From Trichodelitschia bisporula (lineage: Eukaryota): DNA of 36,696 nucleotides. The stretch is taken from contig ML996715.1 of assembly GCA_010356995.1 (NCBI GenBank), positions 7,648-44,343 of the forward strand, written 5' to 3'. Position 1 is the stretch's first letter, and each line of letters begins with the position of its first letter. A model generated the notes under the pieces. It saw only the letters and a program-made list of their open reading frames with translations. It made no database searches and had not been told where the DNA came from. The position numbers and the translations under genes are program-made. Shown here in pieces: positions 1 through 36,696 of the stretch.

Positions 1-1717
1 CTTTACGTCCAGCTTACAGATATCATGGACTCCAAAGACACGATGGCATGAAACCCTTCGGAAACCTTCTGCATCCATCCAAGCGCCTCAAGCCAGTGAA
101 GGAGATGCTCCTTCAGGAACTCATGAACTTCACCGTCATCGTTGAGCTGAGATCCACTCTTATGAAGATGCTGTATCCAGTAGAGGCATGCATACTGCTT
201 CTCAGGTTGGAGGGAGCCTTCAACCTTATGACTGTCGACCTCGGTCTTGAGTACTCCAGGCCGACCTATTCCAAGCATGTCCTGCGTGAGGAAGTCTGAC
301 ATGACCTGTATGCATTTCGTGGCAAGGGCTTGATGCGCTTGCTTTTCATCGACCCAGAAACCTGTATCTCCGCTTCTCTTCGAGTCGAGAAGGAAGTCAC
401 GGAATGAAGGGTGGTGTAAACGGAGTGGGTAACCTGGTTCCTTTGGAATGTCTAAAATGGCGTAAAGAACACCCAGTATCTGACTCACATCATCCTGTGG
501 GATGTTGAGCAGCCTGCTCAAGGACTGGGTGGAAAGTGGAGAGAGCAGGGTTACAATGCTTCCAAGAAGACCTTTGAGCTCAGATCGGACCTCATCTTTC
601 TCCTCGTCTGAATAGCGGGGAGAAGTGCAGTGGTTAAGGACCTCTGTGTAAATTTTGTTGAGTTGCTCTACTGGGGAGTCGACAGCAGTGCGACTTTGGT
701 TCAGGATCGTTTCCAGTCTCTTTGTAGCAATTCGCTTTAGCTTTCCGTCATGAATAAAGCGGCATGCGGTTGCTGCCCAGATAAACAGGCCACTTGCGTG
801 CTGAACAAGGCGATGAATGATTTCCTCGCCTGGCCAGCTAGCGTGAAGAGAATATTCGTGGGCAATGCATGCGAGTTGGTGCCGTAGAAAAGTGCGGATA
901 TCGTGGTCAACAATCGATGGTGGTATATTGTGGAGTACAAAATCCCGGTGTTCGTCTTCCGGAATTTTGATAGGAAGCCAAGGTCTGCTCGTCAAAAACA
1001 CTCGGAGCCGTGGCCTCTCCAACAACCGAGCTTCCGCCAACAGTTGCAGAATGATCCGTATGCTGTCCTCATTCTCGCACTCGTCGAGCGCGTCAACCAC
1101 CAGCATAAATGCAAAAGGGAATTGGTTGCCCTTGAGCTTCGACAATGGACCGAGGACAAGATGGCGCCACTGGTCGAGTAGAGACAGGTTTGCGATGTTG
1201 CTGCGCTTGGTGATAGCATCGCAGATGGTCGGCTTCAGAGCCTGCACGTTGTCTGCAAGTTGTACTGCGATGCTTGTCACAAACTTGCCGGCATGGCTAA
1301 CATCTCCGCCACCTCGAGAGAAGAAAAAGCTGGCTCCAAGAGATTCTTCCACGGAACACCTAGCGGCCACTGTTTGCGCCACCGTGGACTTGCCAGTACC
1401 AGCCAACCCACTCAGCCAGAAGATGCTTGGTGAGTTTTCTTCATTGACCCAGCTGTGTATCTCCTGGAGAAGGTCGACACGGGTGCCAGGAAGACAGGTA
1501 GACTCAAGTTCTCGTTGGCGTGCATTAAATGGCGCATCGGCAGCAAAAGGTAAGGCCTTGAGCCCGTTGTCATCTAGGCGACTAATTAGCCTCGGTTTAT
1601 AGCGAACAGTTACATATACTCACCGCTTCCAATACTCACAGGTCCGAATTGGCCGGTAAGAGCAATTGAACGGTTGGAGACAGACACGCCGCTGATGTTT
1701 TGAGTACTGCCAGACAT
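1..1717 (-). CDS. Fungal NLR (HET-E/NWD2-like NACHT, probably NACHT-WD40) with short N-terminal amyloid-like motif; 3' end outside window
   Basis: Exon1 1717-1624 (MSGSTQNISGVSVSNRSIALTGQFGPVSIGS). Phase-1 intron 1623-1574 (GTGAGT...GCTAAT...TAG). Exon2 1573-18 is in frame: APFNARQRELESTCLPGTRVDLL, Walker A WLSGLAGTGKS, Walker B LVVDALDEC, FLTSRP, ASGLFIWAATAC, HHPSFRDFL, YACLYW, HLLHWLEAL. Next donor GTAAGC at 17. Confidence 0.93.
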
Positions 1718-2216
1718 GAGATTCGAAGCCGCGACGACGTAGGAAATTGCTGATATCAGGCTACTGCTCTATCATGGCAAATGTTGTCGAGCGCACGCGC
1801 GTTAATATCCAGGAGTGACCGTATATGCATCTCGGATCAAGACTGAGTTGAGCTAGGATATGTACAGCTTGTTGTGGTCTAATGAACCACCCTGCCGCCA
1901 TCGCTCAGCCAGAGAATACGCCACGACTCAGGCTGAGCCGAAGCGCAGCCCAGTAATCTCGCTTTACGCCCTGCCACCCCGCTCATTATGTGACTGCCAG
2001 TTGCTTTTACTGGACTACGGCAAGACCATTCAGCATGCATTCCACCAGCGCTCGCATAGCAGCGCGTCAGGATGCTTATGCGGGTTTCCTGCGCCTCAAT
2101 ATTGTCGGCGTACCCGAATAAGCTGTCGGCGTACTCGAATGAGCAGTCTTGGGCGGCGGACACTGGTGGTAAGTTGAGGTGGCACAAGGGCTTAAGGGAC
2201 AGAGAATGTGGATGGA

Positions 2217-2469
2217 TGTTAGGGCGAAGCAAGCGACAATTTCTTTGATGTATTTAATCTAGGACAAGGCTTGATTATAAGATAAGAGACAAAGAGTCAA
2301 AATGAGAACAGCGCGAATCTAAGTTATAGGCCGTGAACGAAGCTGCATCGGACTTCGGCGTTGTCTAGCATCGGCTTCGGCATTTACCGTGCGTCGGCTT
2401 CGGCGTCGCCGCGCTAAGGCTGGCTGTCCGGGCGCATCCCCACTGAGCTGCTCGGCATGAGCCGTGACA
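2217..2469 (-). mobile_element. Solo LTR (253 bp) with 5-bp TSD ATGGA
   Basis: TG...CA ends with imperfect terminal inverted repeat (TGTTAGGGC / GCCGTGACA). ATGGA at 2212-2216 and 2470-2474. Shares CATCGGACTTCGGCGT with the reverse complement of the LTR at 27305-27676. Confidence 0.8.
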
Positions 2470-2947
2470 ATGGAGTTGGATGAGAGAGCAGAGCTGTGGA
2501 ACAAGTCTTGTTGGTTCCTTGGCACTCTGGCCCTATACTTGCCTGGCTCAAGCTGAAGGCCTGCCGACCCTTGGACCTTGCCGGGGTGAGTGCTCACATC
2601 CGGTGAAGTGAGCCAGATGCTAGGTTGACAACTGGTACGGCGAAGATGCCTTGCGACGGCTAACTGTGTGTTTCCTTACTTGGCAGTCTGTTGCCATCGC
2701 TGCCTGTCCCTAGCACGCTAAGCTAAATACGATGATTCGTTGCAGCCCGCAATATCTCCTCAGCTGAAGAGCCCTCCTCAGCCCTAAATACTACCCGTTG
2801 CCTCCCTCAACAGCCATCTTTTCCTTCCTTTGTGCAAGACTCCATTCGTCTATCGTCGCCTACTTGAACCTGCCTTGATGGTTTTCTTCTGTTTACTTTC
2901 AGCACGAGAGCACATACAACGACTCTTGAAGCCAACCCCCAGAACTC

Positions 2948-3897
2948 ATGGATCCCTTGAGTATCGCTGCAAGCACTCTGGGCATTGCGCAGGTTGTCGT
3001 AATCAGCATCGTCAAACTCCATGATTTTATCAATGAACTCGCTGAAGCTGATGAAGAGCTAAAAAATATTGCTTCGAACATTGCGGGTATCCATCTCGCG
3101 TTGACCGCCCTGGGGGAACTCGACATTTCCACGGAAAGGACTCGGGCTGTTCTCAAGAAGGCTGGCGTCGCTGAAGCCGTGAGCAAGTGCGGCGCGCTAT
3201 GTGACAAATTCACCAAGAGCCTCGAACGGTGGACGAAACATTCCAGCGGGAACAAACTCTCCTTCAGAGATCGCTTATTAGTCGGCATGTGGCACAGCGA
3301 GAAAATCCGGACGTTCAAGATGCGGGTTCAGTCTTGCAAGGACACAGTTCATTTTGCCGTTTCATGTACCCAGCTGTAGGCGAGCTGTCAAATACCATGT
3401 TGGCAGACACACACTAACGCTAGAAAAGGATCATCTCACTTGACGATGAACATTCTTCTGAGGATCGTCGAAAGGAACTAGAGATACGAGCACGGAAGGT
3501 GAGGGAGGAAGTTAAAGAGCATGTCGATCTCAGCAAAACGCAGCAACTTGAAGCACAACAGCGCAAGAAAGAGTTGGAGAAAGAGTCCGACAGCGAAACA
3601 GAAGAAGCCTTCCAACTGCGAGAGTCCGCTATTGAAGAGGTTGAAAAGCAGTTACGTCTCCTCAGGGTCGATCAAGAGTCCTCTGAAGCAGTTCTCTCAC
3701 AGCTACCCTCCGAGTCAGTGGAACAGGAAATTCGCGATATCCGCACTGCCGAGAATTCGTGGGCTGCGGTAGGGTCGTCAGCGAGTGTTGTCGGAATTAC
3801 TCGTCAGCGAATTGAAGGGGTACATACGACGAACCAATCCGTTGCGGTTGTGGGGAGATTTGACGTGACTTCGATTCCTGGCCCCATGTCACGGTGA
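2948..3897 (+). CDS. HeLo-like (HELL/SesA-type) protein with C-terminal two-repeat HET-s-related amyloid motif, ~298 aa
   Basis: Exon1 2948-3375 begins MDPLSIAASTLGIAQVVVISIVKL, a hydrophobic N-terminal helix typical of Helo_like_N/SesA. Intron 3376-3428 (GTAGGC...CTAAC...AAG) joins it in frame to exon2 3429-3897. The C-terminus has two pseudo-repeats, QEIRDIRTAENSWAAVG and QRIEGVHTTNQSVAVVGRF. Confidence 0.85.
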
Positions 3898-4211
3898 TGG
3901 CGATGGCATACGACAACCTCGCCGCATCATTGCGCGGTTGACAGTGGCGTCGGCAGGCAGAAGCCGACTGTGACTCACAATTTTTAATAAGTGGCGAAGG
4001 GAACAGGCTGGAAGGTTCCAGAGGATGTTTGTACGTCACCAATATGCGGATTGTGGATGTGTGAGTGCTGCTGTGTGTATTGTGTGTAGATCTAGCGAAG
4101 AGGGAGTTCAAGAACCCGCTCAGCAGGTGGAGAGTTGACTGCCAAGCCATGAGGCCGGCCTAGTCCATTCATATTTGATCTCATCTTGCCATCTGACCTT
4201 GGGTCAACAAA

Positions 4212-4307
4212 AGGGAGCCGGTGCCAGGCTGAAGACGGGGCAATTTGAGGGAGGCGCGGTGGTTCAATGCAGAGGAAAGACGAGCACACGTTACTGCTTA
4301 TCCAAAA
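4212..4307 (+). repeat. ~96-bp dispersed repeat, copy 1 (copy 2 at 17580-17677)
   Basis: AGGGAGCCGGTGCCAGGCTGAAGACGGGGCAATTTGAGGGAGGCGCGGTGGTTCAATGC... aligns colinearly with 17580-17677. Confidence 0.75.
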
Positions 4308-4395
4308 TCTCTTAGCGCATCAGTAATTTACATTTCAATTGAAGGAAATCTGGCGCTGGATTGGCGGCAAGACTGAGGAAGATAATAGCTCCCAC

Positions 4396-4418
4396 TGATC
4401 ACGCATCACCTTTCAACG
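4396..4418 (+). mobile_element. 23-bp terminal fragment of LTR family A
   Basis: TGATCACGCATCACCTTTCAACG is identical to 29793-29815. Confidence 0.55.
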
Positions 4419-4689
4419 GTCTGGATACCCACCCCTCGTATTTCGTGCATTGACTTTGGTTTGAAAGGATGAGCACGTTCGCTAGAATGACAACAAGAGC
4501 TTTCGAACAATTAGAGTCAAAAGGAACAACATGAAATTGAAAATAATGGTCTCCTGCTGCAGCCCGTGACATACACCTGTCGACTAGGAAACCCTCGTAC
4601 TCCTGCGCTATCAAGACGACCCCCCACCCGAGTCACTCCACCAAGGAAACGCGTAACTCGAACAGGAGCCGGATTGCCCTGTCAACCGC

Positions 4690-5451
4690 CTATGACGTAT
4701 TGAATTTCCATCGCGAGTTAGCGTCACTGCATTGGGGACAACTGCGCTTGTGGATGGCGAGGTTTCCACGTTACGAAAATTTCTGGCCACATTCACAGGC
4801 AAACGGCTTTTCCCCGGTATGGGTGCGCTGGTGGTCTATCAAGGTATCCGGTCGTGAAAAGGCCACGCCGCAGTTGGCAACGCTGCAAGGGTACGGCCTC
4901 TCTCCGGTGTGAGTGCGCTGATGTCGGGTCAAGCCTTTCGACCATGAATAACCACTCCCGCAGCCGGGAAACTGGTAAATGTACGGCGCCTCGGGGGCAG
5001 AAACGTCAACCACCTCGTTTGTCTCGGGATGGACATAGATGTCAACAAGATGGCCAAGAGCCTCGTCTGGGACGCAAAACACCACCCTAAACGTTTGCTT
5101 CTCCGCCCGTAGAGTCCGGCGCTTTGTGCTCCGCGTCTGAGCTGCCTGGGGTTTGGCCGCTCGAGTTGTTGCTGATGTCGTGGTCGTTGCCGCTGCTGTC
5201 ACTGCTCGAGCCCTTGCTGTTGCTGCCGACCGCCGCGTCTTTTCTCTGCGGCTGTTCCGAAGGCGTACCCGCTTATGCGCCGCGCTTACATGCCGGGCAA
5301 GGTGATCCCGCCAACCGTATTTCTTGTTGCATCCTTCGTGCGTGCAAGGGTGGGCGAAGTTTCCTCGAAAAGTCGCTTCGTGATCGCGGGCGTTCCACGG
5401 ACGCGTGTGCGTCTTGGGGCATTGCGGGCATTTGTATATCCCGGTCGACAT
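4690..5451 (-). pseudogene. Multi-C2H2 zinc-finger protein, probably pseudogene
   Basis: [41 protein letters not shown]. In-frame TAA (4771-4773) interrupts the last finger (FS*RGNLAIHKRSC). One finger has YIYQFPGC in place of Y-C-xx-C. Confidence 0.7.
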
Positions 5452-5664
5452 GGCATCGCGATCTTTGGCCAGAATATTAGCGGAGAGAATGAAAAACCTG
5501 GGGGGGGGGGGGATATCAGATCCTGTCGCAATCTGCAAATGTCTCTTTCGTGCAGCTTTTTCAAGGTAGGTCGCGTCGTGCTTTGGATCTTTGTGGATTC
5601 TGGCTAGCTTTAATGTGGGGGCTGATTGCAATGCCTACAATCCCCGAGCAGCGAGGTGTCACAG

Positions 5665-5872
5665 GATGGATGAAGGGACGACCGGCTGTTGGGGCGCGGT
5701 TCATCCATCACGTCGACGCCTCCCCACGCAAGTGAAGGGGTGCACTCGCCATCAGGTGAGTACCCATCGATAATAGGGAGGCGTCGCCGCTCAAAGCATC
5801 CCTTGACGGCGGATGAAGGGGGGAGCGGTTGCTGGGCGCGGTTCATCCATCATTCTCCACGCAAGCGAAGGG
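5665..5872. repeat. Two imperfect ~65-75 bp direct repeats, each with a hairpin
   Basis: GATGGATGAA(5665-5674)...TTCATCCATC(5700-5709)...CCACGCAAGTGAAGGG, repeated near 5811-5872 as GGATGAA...GGGCGCGGTTCATCCATC...CCACGCAAGCGAAGGG. Confidence 0.65.
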
Positions 5873-6434
5873 ACGCACACGCATTGTCGGGGCGGCGAAC
5901 TCATCTTGTCAGACGAGGTAAGGCGTGAGCATCACCTTCATCTTCGGGTCTCCTATTATTATGGTCAATGTCAATGCAAATCCGCCTTCAAGGTCAGCGT
6001 GGCGTTATCCCGACAGAGGAATTGGGTGTGGGCCGCCGCTCAACCCATCTCCTGACTGATTAACACGGATGCGTCGGTTTATGCGCATTGCGGGACAGTC
6101 GGCACATGGAAGCAGGCGGCGATGTGTGCGTCCCATCAGGGAAGCGAGAGGGCAAGAGCCGGAGGAAGGAGTATGTCGCTGCGGAGCTAAGCTGTTGCGG
6201 CGGGCGGGGAAGGGATGCGAAGGAAGGGTGTGGATAGATAGGATAGGACTGAAAGTAAGAGCCAGTCGGAGCTCTCTCTCCTGATCCTATCTATGCTCCG
6301 ATTTCAGCCATCATTCTTAGCCTGTTGGCGGCTGAGTAACAACTTCGCTAGCTAGTCGCCGAAACGGTGTAACACGCATCTCATTGTTTCGACAGTGATT
6401 CCGGACACTCTAAGCGCCCGACTTCTGAAAAGTT

Positions 6435-6488
6435 GGTAGGCATCGGCCCGACCGTTTAATCCGAGAGCCAGTACACTCCGCAGTCATG
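6435..6488. repeat. ~54-bp dispersed repeat, copy 1 (copy 2 at 20684-20736)
   Basis: ATCGGCCCGACC(G)TTTAATCCGAGAGCCAGTACACTCCGC(A/G)GTCATG occurs at both sites; both minus-strand ORFs read MTAECTGSRIK. Confidence 0.85.
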
Positions 6489-7764: not shown

Positions 7765-9037
7765 TTACCTGCGCTTTCTACGATGTACTTTCGCTGGTGG
7801 TAGCCTCGGGTCGGTGGCCTGTGGTCCGCTTTGCGTAAGTGCTGGTGTGGGAAGTGTGTTCTGCGTTTCGAGGCCCTGCGCTGCTCTGCGGGCTGCGATA
7901 TTGCGACGATTCAAATGTGCGGGTATCTGTACCTGTCGTGTCTGGCATCCAGAGTCGTGGTGTGGTGCTAAGCCAGCGCACCCCCTGCAAGACGCGAGCG
8001 GTTGGGCCCTTTGGGCCCCGTTGGCGGTTCGCTCACCTCCACTGGCAGCTCGCTCACCTCCACTGGCAGCTCGCTCACCTCCACTGGCAGCTCGCTCACC
8101 CTCACTGGCGGCTCGCTCACGTTCACAGGCAATGACGCCGAGAAGCTCCTTCGCATATGCCGCAGCAGCAAGGCCAGCATGTCTCTGCCACTCTTCATTT
8201 TTGTGCTCGTCGCAGTAATCCGAAATGCCCCTGATGACAAGACATGGAAAATTGTTCATCAAGCCAGCGGCTTCCGTTTCGAAGCAAAGGCAATCCCCTA
8301 TTCGTCCGAGCTCATCTCGGATTGTGGCGTCTTTAACAACCTCGTTGCCAGAAGCAATGGTTCCATAGTGAACAACTGGCCCCGGGTGACGGCGGTCGTG
8401 AGGTTCATGTTCGTTTGGAACTCCGTATCCGGATTCGACGTAACTCAGATCGGTTTCCAGTGTCCTCCTCACCCTTTCCGATATGATGGCAGGGTTCCCA
8501 ATGAGATGTATCTCCAGAAATCTCACTGCGTTTTGCAGGAGAGCTGGGGGAGCGTTCAAAGAACCAGTTTCCCTGAATTCATACCGGTACGCCTTGCCCA
8601 TATCGTACTGTCTGACGCCCCCATAGCCAGAATTCGGTGCGCTCACGACGACGTCGCCTAGCCGTATATCATGTGCAGGAGATGGAATGCCTCCTCCAAT
8701 GCCGACCATGAGACCGAATTTGATGTTCGGGAATGTCGCGAGCACTGAGGGATTAGCCTACCGGTATGCAAGTAAGAGGCCAAAACTAACTGTGCTGCGC
8801 CGCAACGGCCGCAGATGTTGTTCCCGCCTGAGAGCAGCACGTAATAGCCACGTTGTGATTTCCCGTCTGACCCCCGATGTGGCCCAAGAAGTACAAATTT
8901 TGATCTATCGGGTTTCTCTGCTCCGGCTTAAGGCCTGCATGTCGTACATCAAGCATCGCTACAGCAGCATATGCTTCGTGCGGTAAGGCAGCAACCCATG
9001 CGACCGTGTATTGGTCGCTATCCAATTGGGAGGGCAT
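7765..9037 (-). CDS. Stand-alone PNP_UDP (nucleoside phosphorylase, NLR-effector type) protein with repeat-containing tail
   Basis: Exon1 9037-8791 (YTVAWVAALPHE...NLYFLGHIG...HNVAI). Intron 8790-8745. Exon2 has FGLMVGIGGGIPS, DIRLGDVVVS, QYDMGK, VHYGTIASGNEV, CFETEAAGLMNNFPCLVIRGISDYCDEHKN, AAAAYAKELL. No NACHT follows. 3' end uncertain. Confidence 0.85.
8022..8130. repeat. 21-bp tandem repeat, ~5 copies
   Basis: Unit CTGGCAGCTCGCTCACCTCCA; encodes (G)ERAASG in the annotated frame or VSELPVE in the shifted frame. Confidence 0.9.
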
Positions 9038-11877: not shown

Positions 11878-12824
11878 CGTTGCTCGTTGCCTCACTGGTC
11901 GGGATATTGAGCCTTGTCTGAGGGTTTGTCGTGGAAACTAGCAGTGGCTGCTGCTCGAGCCAAAACCAATGTATCAATTGATCTCTGACTGACTAGCTCG
12001 ACCTCTGAATGAGGTCGGGAATGAGTGACTATATACACAACGTCTGACTTCCAGTATCTTCCATCGATCTGACCAGTTTGTCAGGAAGAATACTCTAGGT
12101 ACTCAATTTGTCATCATAGAAGATTCTAGATCTTCATCCCGCAGCGGCTGGGTGTATACCGTCATTGCTCAGTCTGACAAGCCTTTTGTCGACTGTGGTG
12201 TGTCTGTCTGGGGACTAGTGCTTGAGTGGCGCGTCTGAGTACATTTTCAATGGAATTGAACCGGTGTAATGCACGACTTGTGACTCGCAACGGTCTCGAG
12301 AAGAGACTGGAGATCAGAAGGGTTGATGTTGCTGTGTATCGTCCCGTTGAGGCTGTGGAGCACCTGGTTTGCCGTTTGCAAAGCCTCATTCTGAGTCGTG
12401 AGGATGTCTTCGATCCGCTCTGTATGTACTCCACAAGGTATAATTGTCGTAAGCAGCAGTCTACCTCGTGGGATTGCGCTGGTACTGGGACAGAAGATGC
12501 CGCTCGGACGGCATGAAGTGTTGTTGAGATAAGCGCAAGCTAACAGGGAAACCAAATTCACACTATGATCACATGATTGCCAACTCCACACACTACACCA
12601 CTCTTTACCCGGCATTTGATTCCCGAGATACTCCACATTTGTTTACTCCGCTCTTGTTTACTCCGCTTCCGGGGTTAGCATCTTACTTGCGCATTACCGG
12701 GCTTATTCCCATTGCGCTACTACGGCACTTCTCGGTATCTCTCTCACTACATCGTAGCCTTCTCCGCATCAGCTTCCGCTCTTTTACTCATTCTTCCACC
12801 TCTGCATACAATGCGCCCGTCACA

Positions 12825-17911: not shown

Positions 17912-19878
17912 TCATGACAGCAGCGCAAATTCTGAAACAACGTCCTTGAGCATGTTGTCGAGAACAACGCACGTGAAAAATCCGGGATCGAAAATCACGA
18001 ATAAGACGTTTGGACACGTCGCTAAATGAACATTAGAGATCCGGACAAATGACAGAGGGAAGGTTGAACTTACGCAAGGACTTTGCTGGCCGAGAAGTTC
18101 GGAAGTCGACCACGACCCACTCTCTAAAATTGAAAGAGGTGTAACGGCCTTCCCCGACAAACCGGTCGTAATGCTCCTGTAGTTGGGTCCCGTCCCGCAG
18201 CAATTCAATACCCCAATGGACCCCAGGGATCACAAAGTCGATTCGCTGCCCGCCTAATTCCTTGCTGGAAAACTCCGGGGTGGGAATGATGCGTGCTCTG
18301 GTGACCTTGTATATCGTGCGGTGGAGTTCGGCGCCATAGGCTGCTTCTGGAGTCTTGGATTCTCGTCGCAGAGCATTCCCACAAAACGACTTCAGGCCAG
18401 TCAAGACACACTCCCGTACGCTCTTGAATGGGAAAGGACCGGTGAGATGTGGGACAACGGTGATCGCGGCAAACCTGGCTAAGGTTAGCTATAATTCGTG
18501 CAAAACAGTATAATGGACGTACCAGCGATGAACTTCGGTCGGATAAGTATAGACTATGGAATCGCCGTCTTTCACAACGGCATGCAGGTAGCCCTTGACA
18601 TAGCACTTGCGAAGTGCTTCAGGATTTGTGTCCTCTAGCTGAGCGAACCCTTCTATCGCAACCTTGATGAGAACATTGCGGACATCGGGGTCCCGAAACG
18701 TGGAATGAGGAAATCCGCGGTATGCAGCACAGGATTTGATGACGTTTACGAGGCCATCCCTATTGAACAAGAAATGCTCAAGGGAAGCAGACTGAATTTC
18801 CTTTCCATTTCTGACGATAGTTTTGCAATGCTGGACCATTGAAGGCTGAAGTCAGCAACGCCCAACCGTACAGATTGCTAGGGAAAAGGATGAGACCCAC
18901 ATGGGATTCCAGGAAATTCTCAATCAGGGCAGTCGCAAGGCCAATGTGACCCTCAGAAAACTTGAACAGCATGTCTAGGGCCTCATTCGAGATTGATGCG
19001 GGTATTGCCGTAGTCTTCTTCATCCCCCAGCTCATGAACTCTTCTTGCGAGAAAAACATGCCCACGGAGACAAAAGCTGACGGACGTAGCCCGACGATGC
19101 AATTCTCGGGAAGTGTAAATGGAGTCAATGCACACTCGTCATTGCCAAGGTCCGCCGAACTGCCATAGCAACAGGCGAAGACAAACTTGATACTTTGTGG
19201 TCTTTTTTTGAAATTCTCCAAGACACCCTTGATAGCCTCGTTCCAAAAGGCTGCATCAGCGTAACTCGTCTGCCCTTCATCGAAAAGAATGTAGGCTGGA
19301 GTGCAAAGGACGTCTGTGTGAGCATCCGGCATTAGTTCCTTCAGCTGATCAAACCAGGGCTTCGTTGCCCCTTTAGGGTAACGGGAAAGAAGATGGACCT
19401 GATTGCCTTGGAGACGAAGGTAGTGATAGAGGAGGTCCATGACGCTGGTCTTTCCGGACGCAGGGGTGCCTCGAAGCTGAACGACACCGGTGCGTTCAAG
19501 AAGCGCGACCACAGTCTCCAGGAGAGTTGTTCGGGGCTCCAGGTGAAGGTATTTTGCGACTTCATTGGACGAGATATCGGGTGGAATGGTATTTCGCTCG
19601 CTCGCACCTCTCGCGATTGTGGCAAAGGATTCGTCTTGGGGCACTTCATTCTGGTTAGCTAGGCCGGGGAAGGATGAGTTGCTGTCCTCACCAACGTCAA
19701 TCCCCGAAGAGGGCGGTGCAGCAGCTGTAGTCGGCAGACTGGGCGTGTCGTGGATTGAGAATGCATGATCGCAAACTGTGCAGGCTGGATCACCGCCTGC
19801 GCCCACCGGTGCCGAAGCCTGCATGCAACTGCACGCCATCATTCCTTGCCTGAAGCAGCATGGTCCACGGAACACCAT
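17912..19878 (-). CDS. P-loop NTPase + PD-(D/E)xK-like nuclease (Crinkler-related NTPase+REase type) with N-terminal Cys/His-rich domain, ~603 aa
   Basis: Exons 19878-18901, 18845-18523, 18474-18074, 18021-17912 splice via GT-AG into a 1812-nt ORF. Walker A RGTPASGKT, Walker B ILFDEGQ, EGHIGL. C-terminal PEAAYGAELHR..PEF..RIDFVIP..WGIELLRDG..LQEHYDRF..VVVDFR. Start codon could be further upstream (19929). Confidence 0.8.
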
Positions 19879-20683
19879 GATGGGTGGGCTGGAAGGGCAT
19901 GAAGAGAGAGGGCGCCGGAATATTTCCATGATGGATGATAGCGTCCCTAAATTTGGAGTTCTTGATCGCGACTGACGTGGGTGCAGGCAGTATTGATGAT
20001 GTGAGTTGCTAGGCCTACGTGTTAAGGTAAGGTTCGGTTGCTTAAGAGAGAGCTTCCGGCCTGTCAGGGGCGCACAAATCACTGGTTGCACAGCATTGGT
20101 TGTGGAATAACATTCATTGAAAGCTTGAAGGACTATGTAAGGGTTTCGCGGTGACCGGGGAGTAAGCGGCGAAGATCTCCATGAGCTACTTGCGTCAGTG
20201 GATAGCCCTATGATAGAGTCGCAAAGCTAACCTTGTCCTCACGAAGATGTGGAGTGTGGGGGAGCTGGGGGTGCTAGCGCAACAGGCCAATGCCAAGTCC
20301 TTACCCCTGCAAGTCCAACCGGGCTGGAATTGCAGGATCAGCCATCAAGCTTACCAAATCACGTGACCCACACAGGGCCTGTGGCGATTTGACATGGGAG
20401 AGATGGTATCCTCCCATGACACGGCCTTTGTTTATTCGCCTAGCACATGGAATTTCCTTCAATCAATAACACAGGCGTGTATCCTTGGACGCACGCAAAA
20501 AAAAAATCTATATCGACGCACAATTCGAATCCAAAGCTTCCAGCCAACCGATCATCACTTTGCCTTGATTGATACCACACGGAAGCAAGGCTATGATGGA
20601 CGGGCTCTCTGTACAGCCAGTGACGATCAGCCACGTTCCGACGTAGCCACGCAATTGAATCAAGCCACCGAATCCACTCACTC

Positions 20684-27973: not shown

Positions 27974-28440
27974 CCGCCGTAGACGTCTGGCATACGTTGG
28001 AAGTGAGGGTGGACAGAACCACTCTGAGAGAGTCACCCTTCATGGTGCCTTCCACGTTTTCCTCCTTTTCCGAGTCCCAGTCGATAGAGAATGGGAAGTT
28101 CGGAAATGCAACGATTCCCAATCCGAAGCTCAGTCCGAAGCACACATTCGTTCCAAGCTGGACAGACGAAATCTCTACGGATCCGAGGCCTTTGGGGGTA
28201 CACCAGCAGCCCACGGGCGTAACTGACATCCTCGCCGTTGGCGCAGAGTATATCAACGCGGAGGTGGAATTTTTCGAAGCACCCTCAGCACTCAAATCTC
28301 AGCCTCAGCAAAGATACTGGAAGTCAGACGTGCTGTATATAGTCCCTCATTCCCGACCTCATTCAGATGGGCGAGCTAGTCAGTCAGAGATCAATTGATA
28401 CACTGGTTTTGGCTCGAGCAGCAGCCACTGCTAGTTTCCA

Positions 28441-29494
28441 CTACAAACCCTGAGACAAACAGATACCCAGGTCAGACGAGAGAGGAGTGAGTCCGTGGTC
28501 TTTGAGGAAGAGGGCCAGGGTTTGATACCAGATCCCCGGTGACTGCTTGAGTCCGTAGAGGGCCTTCTGCAGCTTGCAGACGTTGTTGGTCCCGTCATGG
28601 AATTCTGGCGGCTGTTCGACATAGATCTCTTCGTCCACCGTGCCGTAGAGGAATGCCGTTTTGACGTCCACCTGCTCCACTTCCAGGTCGAGCGCAGCAG
28701 CGATGGCAAAGAGGGCCTTGTAGCTCATGGGCTTGACCACGCTGGCAAATGTCTCGTTGTAGTCGATTCCTCCTTGTTGCTCGAACCCCCGGACCACCCA
28801 TCGAGCCTTGTAACGCGACACTTCCCCGTCGGGACCACGCTTGAGCTTGTAAACCCATTTGCCACGCAGCACCCTGCGACCGGCTGGTAGCAGAACCAGC
28901 GTCCAAGTTTGGTTGTCGATGAGTGACTGGTGTTCGTCGTGCGTTGCCTCCTTCCATTTGAGCCAGAAGTAGTCTTGTCGGGCTTGCGCGAGGCTTTTCG
29001 ACTCGAACGGTTCAAGGTTGTTCAGAATGCGCATCGCAGTGCTGAGGAACCCGCACATAAGGGCAAAATGGGTGTTCCCCTCGGTATCGGAGGAGGATGG
29101 CAGATTCCCTACCCGTCTCGAGCGTCGAAGCTCGGCTGTTTCAACCGGGTCCCGATCCAGCCGCTCAGGCATGTGGACTCTGATGACGTCGTCTTCGGTG
29201 GGATCATCTAGTGGTGGGTCGTCCAAGGGTTGATTGAGCGGGAGGGCGCTGGCTAGGGTAGCCGAATGAAATGGAGTGCCACTTGGCAAAGGGTATGCTG
29301 GCGGATCGGTGTCAGCTTCCCCGTCTCCCCCACCATTTGCAAGTGGAACGCCTCCATACTGAAGTGATGGAGCTCCCCCATGCTGAGGCGCGGTACGGAT
29401 GGAGGCTCTGTCGCTTCCTCGGGCGAAACGGTGGGCTGTTCAAGTCCTTCGTGGTGATAGCGCTTTCCGTGAAGACCACGTTCGGGGTGCGCAT
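28441..29494 (-). mobile_element. Ty1/copia pol fragment (post-integrase linker + N-terminal part of reverse transcriptase)
   Basis: WKEA..E..SL..NQTWTLV, KWVYKLK, RYKARWVVRGFEQ..GIDYNETFA, QVDVKTAFLYG, EEIYVEQP, LQKALYGLKQSP. Ends before YVDD. Confidence 0.93.
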
Positions 29495-29495
29495 G

Positions 29496-29815
29496 TGTTG
29501 GAATGCGGTGGCTGTGTTCAGCCTTACCCAGTTTCAGCCACAGGGCTCGAGTATAAGTATGTTGAATTTGTGGCGGCAACGTGGGGTGGCTGGAGTGGAG
29601 CCAGGAGACAGGGGTCGTCTCCCGGTGATGTATATAGTCAGCTCACTTCCTACTGCTAGTTAGTTAAGCAACTCAGTCATGTTCATACTTCATTTCAACA
29701 AAGTACACTCGGGGTCCCCACCTCTTTGACAATTAAGCAACTTGTTCATGGACAGACCTTCGGTCCAACTTGTGATGCAGTGACGTTTCTGTTGATCACG
29801 CATCACCTTTCAACG
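29496..29815. mobile_element. LTR family A, copy 2, interrupted by a nested LTR-B
   Basis: Matches 23747-23926 on both sides of the insert. Confidence 0.85.
29560..29700 (+). mobile_element. Solo LTR family B (141 bp), TSD AAGTA
   Basis: TGTTGAA...TTCAACA; AAGTA at 29555-29559 and 29701-29705. The empty site is visible in LTR-A copy 1. Confidence 0.92.
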
Positions 29816-30619
29816 CACACATCCTCCTTTTTCTCCGGCCGTCCGTTCAATCCGCCCTTACCCTCGCCCTCGGACACCTGCCGCTCGCTCAACCACCCAG
29901 CCAAGTGCTCCATATCGGCTGTATCAAGGCGGTCCGCAATTGACAGCGCCGCAAGGCAGGTGAATAGCTGGCCCGAATGCGATTCTGCACCAGGTGAATT
30001 GCCGTATGCACCGTCGAGATTGGCGCAGGACTCGATATATGTCACCGCATGTGGAACATCGACGAGATCCAACCGACCAAGGAGCGACAGCGCATTCAAC
30101 GCTCCGTACGGGAAGCGCGTGTCAGGCTCTCCATACTGATGCCGAAGAACGTCCCCGTAGCCGGATCCTGCAGCCCTGCAATAACTGCTCCGTCAGTCCA
30201 GTCCACATCTATCTAGAAAACTCACACTTAGCAATTTTCTCCTTCCCCGCCGGCACTCTCGCCTCAAGCTCCTCAAATCCATCCACCAGCGCCAAAATCT
30301 GCACTTCGCTCACAGTATACAGCATATGCGCATCATGCCCTGGAGCAGCACCCATCCCGCCCAACTCATGCAGACAGCTGAGCACGAATTCGAGCACCTC
30401 GGTGCGGGGCAAGGCGTCCGGCTTCCCGAGCAGGTGCAGCGCGGTCAAGCCCCAGTATAGCCCGTTTAGTCGCAGGTGCTCCGTCAGCCAGCACTCGAAC
30501 TCGTCGTGCCGCTTGTCTAGCGTTTGAATGTAGCGTATGTGGGCGTTGGTGTGAAGTTGCTGAGGGGAGGGTCCTGAGGAGAGGGCGCCGCCGCGGCCGG
30601 GGCCAGCGACGGGGGACAT
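29816..30619 (-). pseudogene. BET2: Rab geranylgeranyltransferase beta subunit, frameshifted and 3'-truncated
   Basis: WLTEHLRLNGLYWGLTALHLLG, GAAPGHDAHMLYT, intron, frameshift near 30140, [35 protein letters not shown], then cut by LTR-A (YSWW expected next). Confidence 0.9.
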
Positions 30620-31513
30620 CGTGGATGTGAGCGTTGGTTTTCAGGGCTCAGCTCGGCCAGCACTGGCACTGCCTGCCGGTACGTGTGCTACAATGAAGCT
30701 GTCAGGGCTTTTCTGGTGGGTGGAGGATGTTGTAACTTTAGGGTCTTGGAGTATTGCGATGAGTTGGTCGAATTCCTGCAACCTAACTATCTGCTGATAT
30801 ATATACATAAAGAGTGGCGGATATGCTTGCGCAAACAGAAAGAACTAGAACACACTCGAACGCCGTAATTACCAATCTGATCTTTCTGGCCCCTTCCAAC
30901 AGAGGAAAGGTTGGCGCGGAGTTACATTGAAGGCTGCCTGGTCTCGTCGAGCCAAGCTCGCAGTAACCTTAAGCGAGTAGGGCGTAGGGTGCGGGAAGCG
31001 GAGATATATCGGATGATCCTTAAAGGGTTTACTCTGCTTGAGCGGTATGAAAAATATCAGCTCTTATGATCCCCAAGCCTTATGGCTTTGTAGATGAGAA
31101 TGAACTTTAACTTGAGTTGGCGGGGTTAGGATAAACCCCGCGCCAAGCCGTAAATGTATACTGCGAGGTGGAGCAAGAGCTTCAGCCACCCTTGTCACTG
31201 TACAGTAGCTCTGGACGAGAGAGGCAGCACTTGTGTTGGATCTTGAGGCCAACGTCAGAGAGTTACTGGGAGTAGATAGCCCCTAATCCATCCAATTTCT
31301 GTGCCTTTAATGTAGGGGATTTCGACCACGGTTGCCTCGCAGGGAGCTGGGTAATGGTGGTGATGTTACGTAGTACACGGGAAGGACGAAAGAATGGACT
31401 GATGTAGAATAGGAAAGGGCTCGACCGAGCTCGGTCTCAGTCTCGAGGGCATTCTGGTGGGAATTTCGCAGATGTCGTACTCGTGAAATCAAGCACCATA
31501 CGCGCAAAGCTAT

Positions 31514-32243
31514 CTACGCCTTCTCTTCCTCGTTGACAAACAGGTCCCAGTCTTTGACCTCAAAGGTCTCCAGAATGCGGTCGCGCATCTGTATCGCCGC
31601 CCCGAGAAGCGGACCCGGCTTGCGTGCCTCGAGGTCAACATCCGCGCGGGAATACTCGTCTGCCACATGCGAGACATTAATCGAAATGACAATGTCAGTC
31701 TTCTGCGCCGCGAGCCGCACGAGCACCAGGAGGATGTCCGTAAAGTCGGCTTGCGGGGAGCGCGAAGGCGCGGCACTTAGATGTTGGGTGGCGAACATAG
31801 GGAACGCCGGGGTCGACCTAGGCAGTGAGGTTAGGTGGGGAGTGGGGTACAGACGAGGCAGTTAACGCGTAAGGGAGAGCTGTACTCATATTAGCGGGGC
31901 ATACATACGGCATTTTTGCCAGCGCCGCTGGGGCAAAATCCGCCCAGATGCGCGTCTCGTCGGCGCTGCTGGTCACGATATCGGTGTAATGGAAACGCAG
32001 AGCGGCTTCATCCGAGCTGTCGTTCGGCTGGATGACGCGCTCAGTTATGTCGAAGATGATGCTCGTGAGGCCGGTGGTGTGGAGGAAGACTTCCTGGTTG
32101 TCGGGACCTGGCGGATGGTGCTGTAGGGTTAGATAGGCGCAGAGTCGAGGCTTCCATGAATCTCACCTAACGTCTGCGAAGTCGCGGGGAAGGTTGGCTG
32201 TGAGTGCGCCGCCGAAGAGCGGGACGGTGGTGAAGGTGGTCAT
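31514..32243 (-). pseudogene. MOG1: Ran guanine-nucleotide release factor Mog1, one apparent frameshift
   Basis: PLFGGALTANLP..FADVS | intron | TIRQVP(-1 C near 32103)DNQEVF..TSIIFDITER | intron | ..LVRL..QKTDIVISINV..FEVKDWDLF. Confidence 0.82.
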
Positions 32244-32585
32244 TGTAAAAGGTTTGGTGGCTTTGCCGAAGTGAGGTGAGGTTCGAGGTTCATAGCAGGC
32301 AGGGTATTCAAGTCTAGGGGAAAGCTGTAGGCAGACATGGCAGACTCAATGCTATGACTATTTCAACGCCACATAAAGGATGCAGCTCGAGACGGAATTA
32401 TTGAACCACTGAAGCAACTTTGGAAAGTGAGCGTTTCACATCCTCTAGTCATCGATTTGGTCCTGCAGAGGCCTGTCTTTGTGTCGTACGGATGTACAGC
32501 ACAGTTGATTGGCTTTTCACCCACGTAAGTACGAGGTACAGTACAACGTTACTTCACACTCACGCGGCACCGTACTGATGCTTAC

Positions 32586-32725
32586 TGTTAAAATGAAGTG
32601 TGAACTTGACTGAGTTGCTTGATCGACTAGCAGTGGGAAGTGAGCTTACTATATACCTCGCCAGGAGACAACCCCGTCTCCAGGCTCCATTCCAGCCACC
32701 CCAGGTTGCCGCCACAAATTCAACA
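32586..32725 (-). mobile_element. Solo LTR family B, copy 2 (140 bp), TSD CTTAC
   Basis: Reverse-complement match to 29560-29700; CTTAC at 32581-32585 and 32726-32730. Confidence 0.92.
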
Positions 32726-33729
32726 CTTACTGACAGCCGGAGTGGTGGGCGGGACGACCTGAAAACCGAGTTTAGACATTTATCTGTCGCTTGATGTCGT
32801 CGCGTTGTTGTCGCGCACATGTCAGTGAGGAAGCGGCTTCTGCAGATCATTTTTCTTGTTCCCTCGTAGGCGCTTCTCCCCCGATACGAGGCCACAAAAG
32901 CTGGTGCAGCCTACTCCGCATGGACGGGAGGTACAGCACAGTCAAGCACCTCACGCAAGAAAATCGCCTTACTGTTTCGTACCATGGTAGTTTAAGCACG
33001 AACCACACGACTCTTCGAGCTCCGCCGGCATCTGCCTTCGGGAGGGGTGCAATAGTTCTAGTGTCCAAATCCGCAGTGGCCAACCGATGATGGGATAACT
33101 TATTAGCTTATGAGCAGGCCTCGTCGACGCCCAACCTCAGTGTACTCCGTACAACGGAGCAGACAATGCCTTTGCCGGCTGGCCATCTGCCCTTCCATCC
33201 ATACGTCGTACTGTGTAAATCTAAGCCTCTGTTATTGGTAGAAGTGTCGCCCTGGAGTATGCATGTAGACTGAAGAGGCGTGTTGGCATGTTAGGCCTGC
33301 GCCTTTGAAAGAGGAGTTGAGACTGCGCCTTTGAAGGGGAGGGGTGGCTCCCATTCCCTTTCTGTTCATTCTCCGCTCAGCCAACTTCGAAACGCACGCT
33401 GCACGCTTCACGCATCATTCGGGCCTTTCTTCTTGGCTGGTTGTACAACATGTCCCGCTATTATCGGATCAGAAAGCCACATCATCGGTACGAATGCATT
33501 TCTCTAATCACTGCCTCCTCTAATTCGCAATAGCCCAAAACCAACTAGGCTAGGCAAAGCCAGGAGCCTCCTCGTTAACAAATTTATTAAGAGCCGTCGG
33601 CCCACTATCACCGTTCTTCACAATATCGCTTCGCCGTCTCCGTCGAAAGTGCGCAGCCCTGTGGGTGGCGTGAAGGAGGGGGCAAGGAGCAAAAGACTCA
33701 TCATTAGGGAGGGAGTCTCGCCTCCCAGC

Positions 33730-36696
33730 ATGGATAGACAGCAACTAGACAAGAAGGTAGGTTCTCAGTTCGTATGGCCCACCTCGTGGTCTACAGAAAT
33801 CGAATGCAAACCCACTGACAATGTGGAGCTCTCCCATACTGACACGGCTGCTGTTCGGAGCCTACTGCGCCAATTGAAGCATTCGGAATACACAATAGGA
33901 TGGATATGCGCACTCCCTATCGAACTCGCGGTTGCCCGAGAGATGCTGGATGAGGAGCACCAGGATCTCCCTCAGAGTCCACCAGATGACAATCTCTACC
34001 GACTTGGCCGCATTGGCGAACACAATACTGTCATTGTGGGCTTTCCGGCCGGATTCACGGGCTCCTCCCAGGCGGCCCGGGTGGCCAGTCAAATGCAGAC
34101 GACTTTCAAGTCGATTCGGTTTGGCCTTATGGTGGGCATTGGAGGTGGTGTGCCGAGCCGCAGATATGATATTCGACTCGGAGATGTTGTCGTGAGTCAA
34201 CCATCGAATGGCCATGGCGGAATAATCCAGTACGACTTTGGCAAAACAAGACCGGACGGGTTTGAGCGGACTGGTTTTTTGAATTCACCTCCAACCGCCT
34301 TACTGAGCGCTGTAGCGAGTCTGAAGGCCAATCGCGACTTAGAAAAAAAATTCCTACGCCACCTTTCGAAACCGACCCGTCAACCTTGGTTTGCACAGAA
34401 TGCCGGACCAGACGTTTTATATTGCGCTAACTACAACCATGACCGACCTGGTACTGATGACTGTCGGGAGTGCAAAACAGAGCATGTCGAACAGCGACAG
34501 CCACGTGAACATTTCATCGTCCATTACGGCACCATAGCGTCCGGAAATCAAGTCATGCGAGATGCTACGACAAGAGATAATGTCAGCAAGGACCTTGGAG
34601 GTGTACTCTGCTTTGAGATGGAGGCGGCGGGGCTTATGAACCATTTCCCGTGCCTTGTTGTGCGGGGCATTTGCGACTATGCGGACTCGCATAAGAATAA
34701 GAACTGGCAACCGTTTGCGGCAGGGCTAGCAGCTGCGTATGCAAAAGAGGTACTTTTGTTGATGCCGGCAGCCGAAGTCGAGACAGGGTCATCTGCGGTT
34801 GAGTTGATGAACCAAAATCTTGGTAAGTAGCCTTCACCTTTTCTTAGCTGGTAGAGGTCATAGGGAAGATAGGGTTAACCGCAGTCGTTAGAATTCAATA
34901 AGGTTCTTGGAAACATTCCCACGGCTGTAGAAGCGCCTTTCAATGCACGCAAACGAGAACACGACACTGCCTGCCTCCCTGATACCCGTGTCGCACTTCT
35001 CAAGCAGATATATGAATGGCGTGATGGCATGGACTCCCCAAATATATTTTGGCTGAGCGGGTTGGCCGGCTATGGCAAGTCTACGGTTGCGCGAACAGTG
35101 GCTGCCAGGTGTTTCAAGAAAGGCCTTAGCGCCAGTTTCTTCTTCACCAAAGGCGGCGGAGATGTTGGCCACGCCGGCATGTTTGTTACAAGCATCGCAG
35201 TGCAGCTTGCAAATAATGTGCCGGATCTAAAGCCGGTCATTTGCGATGCCATCGCCAAGCACAGCAACATCGCAAGCCTGTCTCTACGCGAGCAGTGGGG
35301 CCGTCTTGTTCTCGCTCCTTTATCGCTGTTTGGAACCGATCAATCCACTCCAAAATTTCTCCTGATTGTCGACGCTCTTGACGAGTGCACAGATGAGAGC
35401 GATGTGCGGATCATTCTTCAGCTTTTCGCCGAACTTCGAGGATCGCACCAAACCAGGCTCCGAGTATTTCTGACGAGCCGACCCGAAGCTCATATCCGGG
35501 ATGAGATTCAGCATATACCAGAAGTGGAACACTACGACTTTGAACTACATGGCATTCAACAGTCGGTTGTCGAACATGATATCCGCGTTTTCTTAGGGCA
35601 CGAGCTTCGCCGTATTTCCTGCAAGTACTTTGACCGCACTAACTGGCCAAGCGAGCAGATCATCAATCGTCTTGTTCAGAACGCAAGTGGCTTGTTCATC
35701 TGGGCTGCTACGGCATGCCGCTTTATTAGTGAAGGGAAACAATTCGCCCCCGACAGACTGGATTCGATCTTGGACCAAGGCCATACCGAGGGGAACACTC
35801 CGGAGAAGCAGCTCAATGATATCTATTCTACTGTTCTCGAGCAAAGCATTCCTGCAGGCTTTTCGGGAAAAGAGAAGGAAAAGCTGCGGTCTATGCTGAA
35901 ATCTCAACTTGGAAGCATTGTAACCTTATTCTCTCCACTTTCCATCCAGTCCTTGAGCAACTTAATGGAAACTCGCGACGACAAAGTAAGCCAGACACTG
36001 CACGATCTCCACGCCATTTTCGACATTCCAAAAGAGCCAAATAGCGCACTCCGTTTACACCACCCTTCATTTCGGGACTTTCTTCTGGATAAAAAAAGAA
36101 GCGGTAATGCCAAGTTCTGTGTTGACGAGAAGCAAGCACATCAGTCTCTTTCTGCGCACTGCATGCGACTTATGTCCAAATCCCTTAAGCAAGACTTGCT
36201 GGGAATCGGCCGTCCGGGTGCGCCTGCAACAGAAATCGAGAACGATCGACTGGAGAGATGTCTCCCTGCTGAAGTACAATACGCATGCCTCTACTGGATC
36301 CAGCATGCTCAGAAGGGTGGCTCCCAGCTTAGAGATGATGACCAAGTCCATCGGTTTCTAAAGGAGCATCTTCTTCATTGGCTTGAGGCGCTTGGATGGA
36401 TGCAGAAGGTTTCCGAAGGGTTTCATGCCATCGTGTCTCTGGAGTCCATGATATCTGTAAGCTGGACGTAAAGCAGAGTGGGGATACTTGGCTGATACTT
36501 GGTTTAGGCGCAGAGGTGTCCGCGATTATCGGAGTTTGTTCATGACATGAAACGATTTGTCCTCTACCACCGGTCAGCCATCGAACTAGCCCCCTTACAG
36601 ACATATTGCAGTGCGCTGGTATTTTCCCCGGCAGCAAGTCTTGTAAAAAGGCAGTTTCAAAGCCAAATGCCTCTGTGGATGCCCGGACTGCCGCAG
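33730..36696 (+). CDS. Fungal NLR PNP_UDP-NACHT-(probably WD40); 3' end outside window
   Basis: PNP_UDP (YTIGWICALPIE, FGLMVGIGGGVP, CFEMEAAGLMN..CDYADSHKNK) to 34822. Phase-1 intron 34823-34891. NACHT exon 34892-36456 (WLSGLAGYGKS, IVDALDEC). Intron 36457-36507. Exon from 36508 reads DMKRFVLYHRSAIELAPLQTYCSALVFSP, the linker that precedes WD40 repeats in HET-E-like NLRs. Exact 5' start uncertain. Confidence 0.93.

Follow-up and report, generated by a model that had tools for sequence, protein, structure and literature searches.

Two NLR genes point outwards at opposite ends of the 36,696-nt stretch of Trichodelitschia bisporula DNA analysed here (the window) and share a short, almost identical tract in inverted orientation. 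The locus raises the question whether this tract marks a 36-kb segment that can be inverted, exchanging the effector-NACHT halves of two receptors between two sensor arrays as the original prediction proposed, or whether the tract has another origin. In our view it is probable that ectopic gene conversion, i.e. the concerted evolution of a C-terminal module across many NACHT NLR paralogues, explains the tract best.

The arrangement of the two homologous genes agrees with the prediction, the left one being located on the minus and the right one on the plus strand. Both encode a NACHT/STAND NTPase domain with matches to PF24883 and PF05729 above the curated cut-offs. The NACHT exon of the left NLR (18..1573, minus strand; PF24883 E=2.3e-29, PF05729 E=6.6e-7) comprises the NPHP3_N/NACHT and winged-helix regions and has its putative 5' acceptor at 1574/1573. 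It is preceded by a putative 50-nt intron (1574-1623, minus strand; G/GTGAGT ... CCTAG/) and a putative first exon of 31 codons plus 1 nt (1624..1717, minus strand), these splice sites being deduced from the sequence alone. The left protein consequently starts with a short motif of about 31 residues, lacking a globular effector domain and any Pfam match beyond chance level (E up to 10). The right NLR, in contrast, carries a PNP_UDP (purine/uridine phosphorylase-like) effector domain in its first exon (33730..34822, plus strand, with a putative start codon; PF01048 E=2.4e-8), as had been predicted.

Contigs of four public runs, X1 to X4, were placed on positions 34800-36696 at an identity of at least 90%. 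X3 and X4 share neither sample nor study with X1 and X2, and are RNA by our guess only. In the right gene, a joint in X3 and X4 contigs (34821>34892) together with the sequence sets the end of the first exon and defines a 69-nt intron (34823-34891, plus strand). The NACHT exon (34892..36456, plus strand; PF24883 E=2.5e-27, PF05729 E=2.9e-7), delimited by contig joints, is followed by a 51-nt intron (36457..36507, plus strand; GTAAGC...TTTAG) and by the first 63 codons of the next exon (36508..36696, plus strand, 3'-open frame), a linker towards the repeat domain. These codons gave chance-level Pfam matches only (E up to 10) and align to the post-NACHT region of NACHT-WD40 homologues with a mean identity of 52%. 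In both genes the NACHT exon has introns at both ends. The left gene leaves the window 17 nt into the downstream intron and the right gene after the 63 codons mentioned, the sensor regions with the C-terminal repeats of both genes being located outside the window. Best homologues of both proteins are HET-E-like NACHT-WD40 proteins, and most of the 120 homologues listed carry WD40-type Pfam families, suggesting that both genes may encode C-terminal WD40 repeats. The left NACHT exon, compared with longer proteins in a collection that does not contain the proteins of this fungus, yielded 2213 matches with a best identity of 62%.

The interval between the arms of the tract (114..36360) includes the 5' halves of both NLR genes. 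Its further content is a C2H2 zinc-finger gene, a second PNP_UDP ORF, a squalene synthase, an nSTAND3-like ORF, a DnaJ-X protein, a truncated copia reverse transcriptase, a prenyltransferase beta subunit and Mog1. The left NLR adjoins, in divergent orientation, a gene for a HeLo-like protein (2948..3897, plus strand; PF17111 E=1.6e-17), the match to PF17111 (2930-3376, plus strand) starting about 1.2 kb from the putative start of the NLR at 1717 (minus strand). The motif-only N-terminus and this head-to-head neighbour resemble the NWD2/HET-S-type pair as described in parts of the literature (PMC4344463, PMC3321046). Two similar short stretches are located within the C-terminal 55 or so residues of the HeLo-like protein and, judged by eye, may resemble the N-terminal motif of the left NLR. 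In contrast to the NWD2/HET-S-type pair, the Pfam HET-s prion-domain model matches neither protein, and no other amyloid family was detected in the first exon of the left NLR or the second exon of the HeLo-like gene (E up to 10). The HeLo-like protein is presumably the amyloid-signalling effector partner of the left NLR.

A global alignment of positions 1-1700 with the reverse complement of 34701-36473 showed 110 of 113 identical columns between the left arm (1..113, minus strand) and the right arm (36361..36473, plus strand), the three mismatches being located at left positions 35, 96 and 102. Only one mismatch falls into the outer 95 columns (94/95). These are exactly the counts given in the prediction. 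To the left arm, the NACHT exon contributes its last 32 codons (18-113) and the next intron its first 17 nt (1-17); the corresponding parts of the right arm are 36361-36456 and 36457-36473. Both NACHT exons end with TCT/GTAAGC, and the intron part is identical at 17 of 17 bases. X3 and X4 contigs skip 51 nt between 36455 and 36507, not more than 1 nt off the GT..AG intron 36457-36507, which identifies the outer 17 nt of each arm as intronic and confirms the predicted inclusion of intron sequence. An exact 36-nt piece of the tract had no match in the JGI metagenome contigs.

The tract stands out from its surroundings. An inverted-repeat search paired the longer arms 1-212 and 36262-36473 at 85%, and the whole NACHT exons share 72.5% DNA identity over 1574-1583 columns (BLASTN). 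Given this background, the binomial probability of at least 110 matches in 113 columns is 2e-12, and about 3e-9 after correction for approximately 1460 window positions. Counted per 50 columns from the outer end, identity drops from 49/50 and 49/50 to 36/50, 39/50 and 24/50; the inner edge is therefore sharp. Since the left arm begins at the first base of the window and is cut by its edge, 113 nt is a minimum length.

At the protein level the two NACHT exons are identical at all 32 residues inside the tract, but at only 293 of 489 (60%) outside. The bodies are thus indeed much more diverged, as had been claimed, although somewhat further than the predicted two-thirds amino acid identity. Third codon positions match in 30 of 32 codons of the tract versus 262 of 489 in the NACHT body (Fisher P=3e-6), and among identical residues other than Met and Trp the codon is the same in 25 of 28 versus 165 of 286 cases (P=9e-4). 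Because the silent positions match to this extent, protein constraint does not suffice to explain the identity of the tract. Nor do its residues seem to be specially conserved across species: in 120 of 120 homologues from other species, identity to the right protein was 65% for these 32 residues and 54% for the body, the former not exceeding the 72% of the P-loop region. The segment is far more alike than the rest of the exons, silent and non-coding sites included, as is typical for concerted evolution, and silent sites and cross-species conservation both favour the predicted recent exchange of sequence over protein constraint. A past crossover and gene conversion leave the same local footprint, and both are compatible with the tract.

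Such a pattern does not seem to be a general property of the NLR family, since the proteins of paralogues from three other fungi (66, 36 and 45 pairs, all of them retained) exhibit no comparable step to near-identity between body and tail. In Lasallia the paralogues share 93% identity over their whole length, and in those of Zopfia and Bisporella the tail is just mildly more similar than the body.

The contigs of the public runs (567, 332, 54 and 44 for X1 to X4) indicate that the tract is not restricted to the two genes. The median summed contig depth of the last six bins (36336-36696, plus strand) exceeded that of the first 24 bins 20.3-, 21.0-, 22.1- and 23.7-fold in X1 to X4, i.e. it was about 20 to 24 times as high as over the upstream NACHT exon; summed k-mer contig depth is a proxy here and neither a copy number nor a gene count. 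The jump begins in the bin that holds the inner edge of the tract, a coincidence within one 64-nt bin, and persists to 36696. At position 36597, 21 contigs of X1 and 20 of X2 carried the same alternative base. The longest contig pieces listed around this position measure 120-220 nt, in agreement with an assembly graph that has many branches, and the run contigs around the arm (120-410 nt) break inside the repeat. Strain mixtures or alleles may inflate these contig counts, because the runs deviate from the window sequence and contain only 0.68, 0.59, 0.29 and 0.29 of its sampled words (X1 to X4). With depth as a proxy, the segment is nevertheless common to many sequences in the runs of the same organism. 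The roughly 20-fold depth jump and the approximately 20 distinct contigs at one position indicate that the tract is probably the 5' edge of a module, consisting of NACHT tail, intron and next exon, which many paralogues have in common.

According to the explanation we prefer, the module would comprise the last 96 or so nt of the NACHT exon, the next intron and the next exon, and would presumably continue into the repeat domain. Recurrent ectopic gene conversion between loci, or else unequal exchange, would keep it nearly uniform, whereas the N-terminal effector parts and the NACHT bodies would evolve independently (60% protein identity). The two genes of the window would be members of this family that happen to lie inverted, 36 kb apart, around ordinary housekeeping genes, and everything beyond the sharp boundary would have been overwritten from other copies. 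Directly observed are the step in identity, the matching silent and intronic positions, and a multi-copy signal that sets in at the same point. For the mechanism we infer conversion and not crossover. The left copy presumably stays similar past the window edge, and the ends of the window were probably set by a short-read assembler unable to pass the repeat.

A known counterpart are the NWD/HNWD genes of Podospora anserina (het-d, het-e, het-r and relatives). Their C-terminal parts are reported to be nearly identical across loci while the N-termini differ, and exchange within and between genes was attributed to unequal crossing-over and/or ectopic gene conversion in the parts of these papers dealing with it (PMC1805685, PMC4986451, PMC13449251). 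The NACHT NLR paralogues of the window likewise are nearly identical in a C-terminal part and different at the N-terminus. In Podospora, however, it is the WD40 repeats that are homogenised, whereas here the NACHT tail, the intron and the linker exon are visible and the repeats lie outside the window. The multi-copy signal is also much larger than the 10 genes described for Podospora, contig depth not being a copy number. A conversion boundary inside the NACHT exon was not described in the portions of the Podospora NWD/HNWD literature at hand. Homologous NODs with unrelated N-termini are known, and one report describes NODs that are 99% identical to each other although their N-termini are totally different (PMC4986451). 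The homologous NACHTs of the window resemble these in bearing unrelated N-termini, a short amyloid-type motif and PNP_UDP, respectively, but differ from the 99% identical NODs of that description in that their bodies share only 60% protein identity. Because of this low value, the N-terminal difference would be old and the tail alone recent.

Alternatively, it might be that the tract is private to the two genes and goes back to one recent conversion, or to one crossover that gave rise to the present orientation, at the NACHT/sensor boundary without any homogenisation of the family. Just 3 differences in 113 positions separate the arms, their location on one contig 36 kb apart favours mutual exchange, and a crossover would yield in-frame chimeras. 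The depth jump and the number of contigs per position, however, reveal many other sequences at least 90% identical, each of them a possible donor, and we regard a private event as rather unlikely. Still less probable is an assembly artefact, in which the last 100 or so nt of the left end would be the overhang of a collapsed repeat node. The tract does start exactly at the first base of the window, and the window length of 36,696 nt with both ends in the high-depth module suggests a whole short-read contig broken in a repeat. Yet the three differences between the arms show that they are not one collapsed node. Moreover, X3 and X4 contigs contain sequence specific for the left gene (reverse complement of about 131-160) as a loose end entering the tract at 36344, and contigs specific for the right gene also run into the tract, to 36402. 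The left junction is thus confirmed independently, by a second sample from a second study whose contigs connect sequence of the left gene with the tract.

The predicted geometry is correct. Judged from the coordinates, a crossover between the arms would invert 114-36360 and swap the halves of the two genes with in-frame joins. Rare homologous crossovers in the in-frame module might thus flip the 36-kb interval without any recombinase, as a strain polymorphism or even somatically, and pair the amyloid-signalling and the PNP_UDP NACHT each with the sensors of the other; we consider this very unlikely. The housekeeping genes inside the interval were rejected as an argument against inversion, as they would be left unbroken by it.

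A recurrent or regulated inversion, flip-flop or shufflon-like, was the core of the prediction and finds no support; we judge it highly unlikely. Bacterial shufflons such as that of plasmid R64 depend on a dedicated tyrosine recombinase (Rci) acting at short specific sites, and their inversion attaches one or another C-terminal end to an N-terminal part that stays the same. Only the idea of exchanging C-terminal ends by inversion is common to both, whereas the host is a eukaryote here and the 105 stop-to-stop ORFs of the window (at least 100 aa) contain no recombinase, integrase or transposase family according to Pfam. The sole mobile-element match among them is the truncated copia-type reverse transcriptase (RVT_2). 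What speaks for a switch is the geometry, in that the two genes point outwards, each with one of the inverted arms on its 3' side, and that the arms are identical in frame, together with a eukaryotic precedent. In Ogataea polymorpha, mating type is switched by recombination between two inverted repeats, flipping 19 kb and changing the connection of genes to the outside (PMC5720833). As far as this account extends, no enzyme is known there either, and the missing recombinase consequently is no proof against inversion. The Ogataea repeats are described as 2-kb copies without differences that occur at this locus only, and both orientations, induced by starvation, were observed (PMC5720833). Here, inverted repeats also flank a region of tens of kb, but the visible arm comprises 113 nt at 97%, it is multi-copy in the runs instead of locus-specific as in programmed invertible DNA, and the arrangement is known in one orientation. 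In addition, inverted repeats of comparable length occur elsewhere in the window (148 nt at 94.6%, 141 nt at 88%), and nobody would regard these as switches. A full-text literature search on inversion or inverted paralogues of fungal NLRs retrieved no relevant report among the 10 matches listed of 40, and the word 'inversion' is absent from a 2026 paper on Podospora NLRs.

Equally improbable is a selective constraint on the nucleotide sequence of each gene independently (splicing signals, RNA structure or a binding site), for some constraint is expected where a tract spans an exon-intron junction, but a splice donor accounts for some 10 constrained nt and not for 113, third positions are frozen across 32 codons, and the same residues are just 65% conserved across species.

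A notable new mechanism of receptor rewiring would be at hand only if the interval were observed in both orientations. Under the explanation by homogenisation of a C-terminal module, short-read contigs end inside the module, and neither the models of NLR genes nor the pairing of effectors with sensors can therefore be relied upon in such assemblies. The locus would then be a further case of fungal NLR paralogues swapping C-terminal parts, an accepted route of diversification. It would add a homogenised block that starts abruptly within the NACHT exon, about 96 nt inside its 3' end, and because this block includes the NACHT tail and the intron, homogenisation would not be confined to the repeats.

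The two NLR genes at the ends of the window carry NACHT exons within stop-to-stop open reading frames at 6-1619 on the minus strand (left NLR) and 34879-36468 on the plus strand (right NLR), both matching the NPHP3_N/NACHT Pfam models above the cut-offs. The window starts inside the minus-strand gene and ends inside the plus-strand gene, so that the genes point outwards as originally predicted, and the C-terminal repeat domains of both lie outside it. The NACHT exons share 72.5% DNA identity over about 1575 columns. The closest match in the protein collection, which does not include this organism's own proteins, reached 62% identity. In both genes the NACHT ORF ends in ...TCT/GTAAGC, followed by a 3' intron of which the left gene shows the first 17 nt (1-17, minus strand) and the right gene all 51 nt (36457-36507, plus strand, GT..AG); the open frame behind the latter runs past the window end. 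Upstream of the right NACHT exon and its 5' intron (34823-34891, plus strand) lies a PNP_UDP exon (PF01048, ORF 33508-34827, plus strand). The left NLR has a predicted 5' intron at 1574-1623 (minus strand), on the equivalent side of its NACHT exon, and as its only upstream exon a short putative first exon at 1717-1624 (minus strand) without a Pfam match. The intron positions are thus equivalent in the two genes. A phase-1 intron on the 5' side of the NACHT exon, about 13-14 codons ahead of the APFNAR motif that both proteins share, and a phase-0 intron on its 3' side place the effector, NOD and sensor parts on separate exons.

These models were compared with k-mer contigs of four public sequencing runs, aligned to 34800-36696 at at least 90% identity; none of these runs matches the window completely. 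X1 and X2, with long contigs, come from one sample and contain fractions of 0.68 and 0.59 of the words sampled from 30000-36696, and X3 and X4, presumably RNA, come from a second sample and study (0.29 each). Contigs of X3 and X4 jump 34822-34891 (one letter substituted) and lack the 51 nt between 36455 and 36507. Both joints were absent from the X1 and X2 contigs of 34800-36696. The X3/X4 joints fit spliced transcripts, the source contigs of which could be close paralogues, and they confirm both introns of the right gene as well as the 17 nt of intron ascribed to the near-identical tract.

Head-to-head with the left NLR stands a HeLo-like gene (PF17111, 2948-3897, plus strand). By eye, two short stretches that are alike can be made out in its C-terminal approximately 55 residues, and they resemble the NLR's N-terminus of about 31 residues. 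Pfam searches detected no amyloid family in the left first exon (1624-1717, minus strand) or in the HeLo-like protein. The same gene layout is described for NWD2/HET-S-type amyloid-signalling pairs in the available text of two reports (PMC4344463, PMC3321046). The two genes therefore look like a putative pair of this type, and the label "amyloid-NACHT" of the original prediction is plausible, not proven.

The interval between the arms of the tract (114-36360) contains ordinary genes, such as those for squalene synthase, a DnaJ-X protein, a prenyltransferase beta subunit, Mog1 and a C2H2 factor, together with a truncated copia RT and additional NLR-like ORFs. A second PNP_UDP-like ORF (7768-8757, minus strand) stays just under the Pfam cut-off (E=1.6e-5), and a 482-aa ORF (18781-20226, minus strand) matches nSTAND3 weakly (E=1.3e-4). 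Both are immune-type ORFs and, added to the HeLo-like gene and the NACHT pair, turn the region into an NLR-rich neighbourhood interleaved with housekeeping genes. A 148-nt inverted repeat (11914-12060 / 28311-28458, 94.6% identity, 16.2 kb between the copies) probably represents an LTR remnant or a small repeat element, since its right copy abuts the truncated end of the copia-type RT ORF (28444-29439, minus strand). Furthermore, 23746-23925 matches both 29495-29559 (95%) and 29701-29814 (90%), meaning that the copy at 29495-29814 carries a 141-nt insertion (29560-29700), which is found again, inverted, at 32586-32725 (88%). By this arrangement, a MITE-like element appears to have entered a short duplicated sequence on the flanks of the prenyltransferase and Mog1 genes.

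The tract itself is real and non-random. Global alignment of window 1-113 with the reverse complement of 36361-36473 gave 110/113 identical bases, exactly as predicted, with three differing positions and one mismatch in the outer 95 bases; the next 50-column blocks inward fall to 36/50, 39/50 and 24/50. Against the 72.5% background the binomial probability is 2e-12 (about 3e-9 corrected for positions). All of the last 32 codons encode identical residues, compared to 293 of 489 in the remainder. Third codon positions are alike in 30/32 versus 262/489 cases (Fisher P=3e-6), the codons of identical residues agree in 25/28 versus 165/286 (P=9e-4), and the intron bases match in 17/17. As the left arm starts at window base 1, 113 nt is a minimum length.

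On 34800-36696 we found 567, 332, 54 and 44 contigs in X1-X4, mostly of 100-300 nt, as is typical of a heavily branched k-mer graph; the contigs end within the repeat. Over the greater part of the NACHT exon the summed contig depth remains modest; it rises abruptly in bin 36336-36399, where the inner edge of the tract lies (36361), and is still high at 36696. Median depth over the last six bins exceeds that over the first 24 bins 20.3-, 21.0-, 22.1- and 23.7-fold (X1, X2, X3, X4), summed contig depth not being copy number. At position 36597 the same alternative base occurs in 21 contigs of X1 and 20 of X2. The conclusion drawn from depth is limited to this: the stretch, intron included, recurs at 90% identity or more in many other sequences of the organism's data. 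Several contigs also match the right NACHT body itself at 90-99% identity, indicating close paralogues or alleles of the right NLR and making depth harder to read. The stretch 34800-34947 looks unique, and X1 and X2 each cover it with two contigs of near-equal depth (212 and 233 in X1, 441 and 457 in X2). One matches the window exactly and the other departs from it by 7 differences over 148 nt, so that the sample contains either two haplotypes or a right NLR that was duplicated very recently.

The pairwise tract and the multi-copy block start at the same place. The simplest reading is that NACHT tail, intron and following exon(s) would constitute a module that many NLR paralogues share in homogenised form, the two window genes being two of its carriers. 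The same pattern, homogenisation among NLR paralogues, is described for the NWD family of Podospora anserina in the part of the literature available. According to the accessible text of a 2026 study, distinct NLR genes exchange repeats, "possibly by ectopic gene conversion" (PMC13449251). The window pair also combines homologous NODs with N-termini that are unrelated, a situation described in the available portion of Dyrka et al. (PMC4986451). The odd length and the position of both ends in the high-depth block suggest that the window is a whole short-read contig broken in a repeat, which would explain the tract at base 1.

The original prediction combined sequence exchange with an invertible, shufflon-like rewiring device. 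Its first part is upheld by the silent and intron identity. The geometry of the second is correct too, as crossing over in the two arms would turn the interval 114-36360 around and give in-frame chimeras, but recurrent or regulated inversion is very improbable: none of the 105 ORFs of at least 100 aa carries a recombinase, integrase or transposase domain (Pfam), the repeat is multi-copy in the runs and hence not locus-specific, and inverted repeats of comparable length occur elsewhere in the window (148 nt at 94.6%, 141 nt at 88%). The one good eukaryotic precedent, flip/flop in Ogataea polymorpha, involves, as far as the available text goes, identical, locus-unique 2-kb repeats seen in both orientations (PMC5720833). 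Among the matches listed by a full-text literature search, none described fungal NLR paralogues undergoing inversion, and the term "inversion" does not appear in the accessible text of PMC13449251. Occasional inversion polymorphism through non-allelic recombination may occur. A pure assembly artefact is made unlikely by the X3 and X4 contigs, independent of this assembly, in which each NACHT body is joined to the tract: those with a left-specific loose end (reverse complement of window about 131-160) join it at 36344, and right-specific ones reach up to 36402. Protein constraint was rejected as the cause, because silent and intron sites match and the 32 tail residues (65% identical to the window protein in 120/120 homologues from other fungi) are no more conserved than the P-loop region (72%), the body standing at 54%.

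At protein level, a step to near-identity at the NACHT tail is absent among paralogues of Lasallia pustulata, Zopfia and Bisporella (66, 36 and 45 pairs, none dropped); in the latter two the tail is only mildly more conserved than the rest. The twelve NACHT-WD40 paralogues of L. pustulata, a lichen fungus, share on average 93% protein identity over the whole NACHT exon (66 pairs), suggesting that NLR expansion there was very recent or has been homogenised. The sharp boundary of the tract is thus a trait of this organism's family and no general rule. The locus, which matters mainly on technical grounds, is probably a further case of the known concerted evolution of fungal NLR C-terminal modules.
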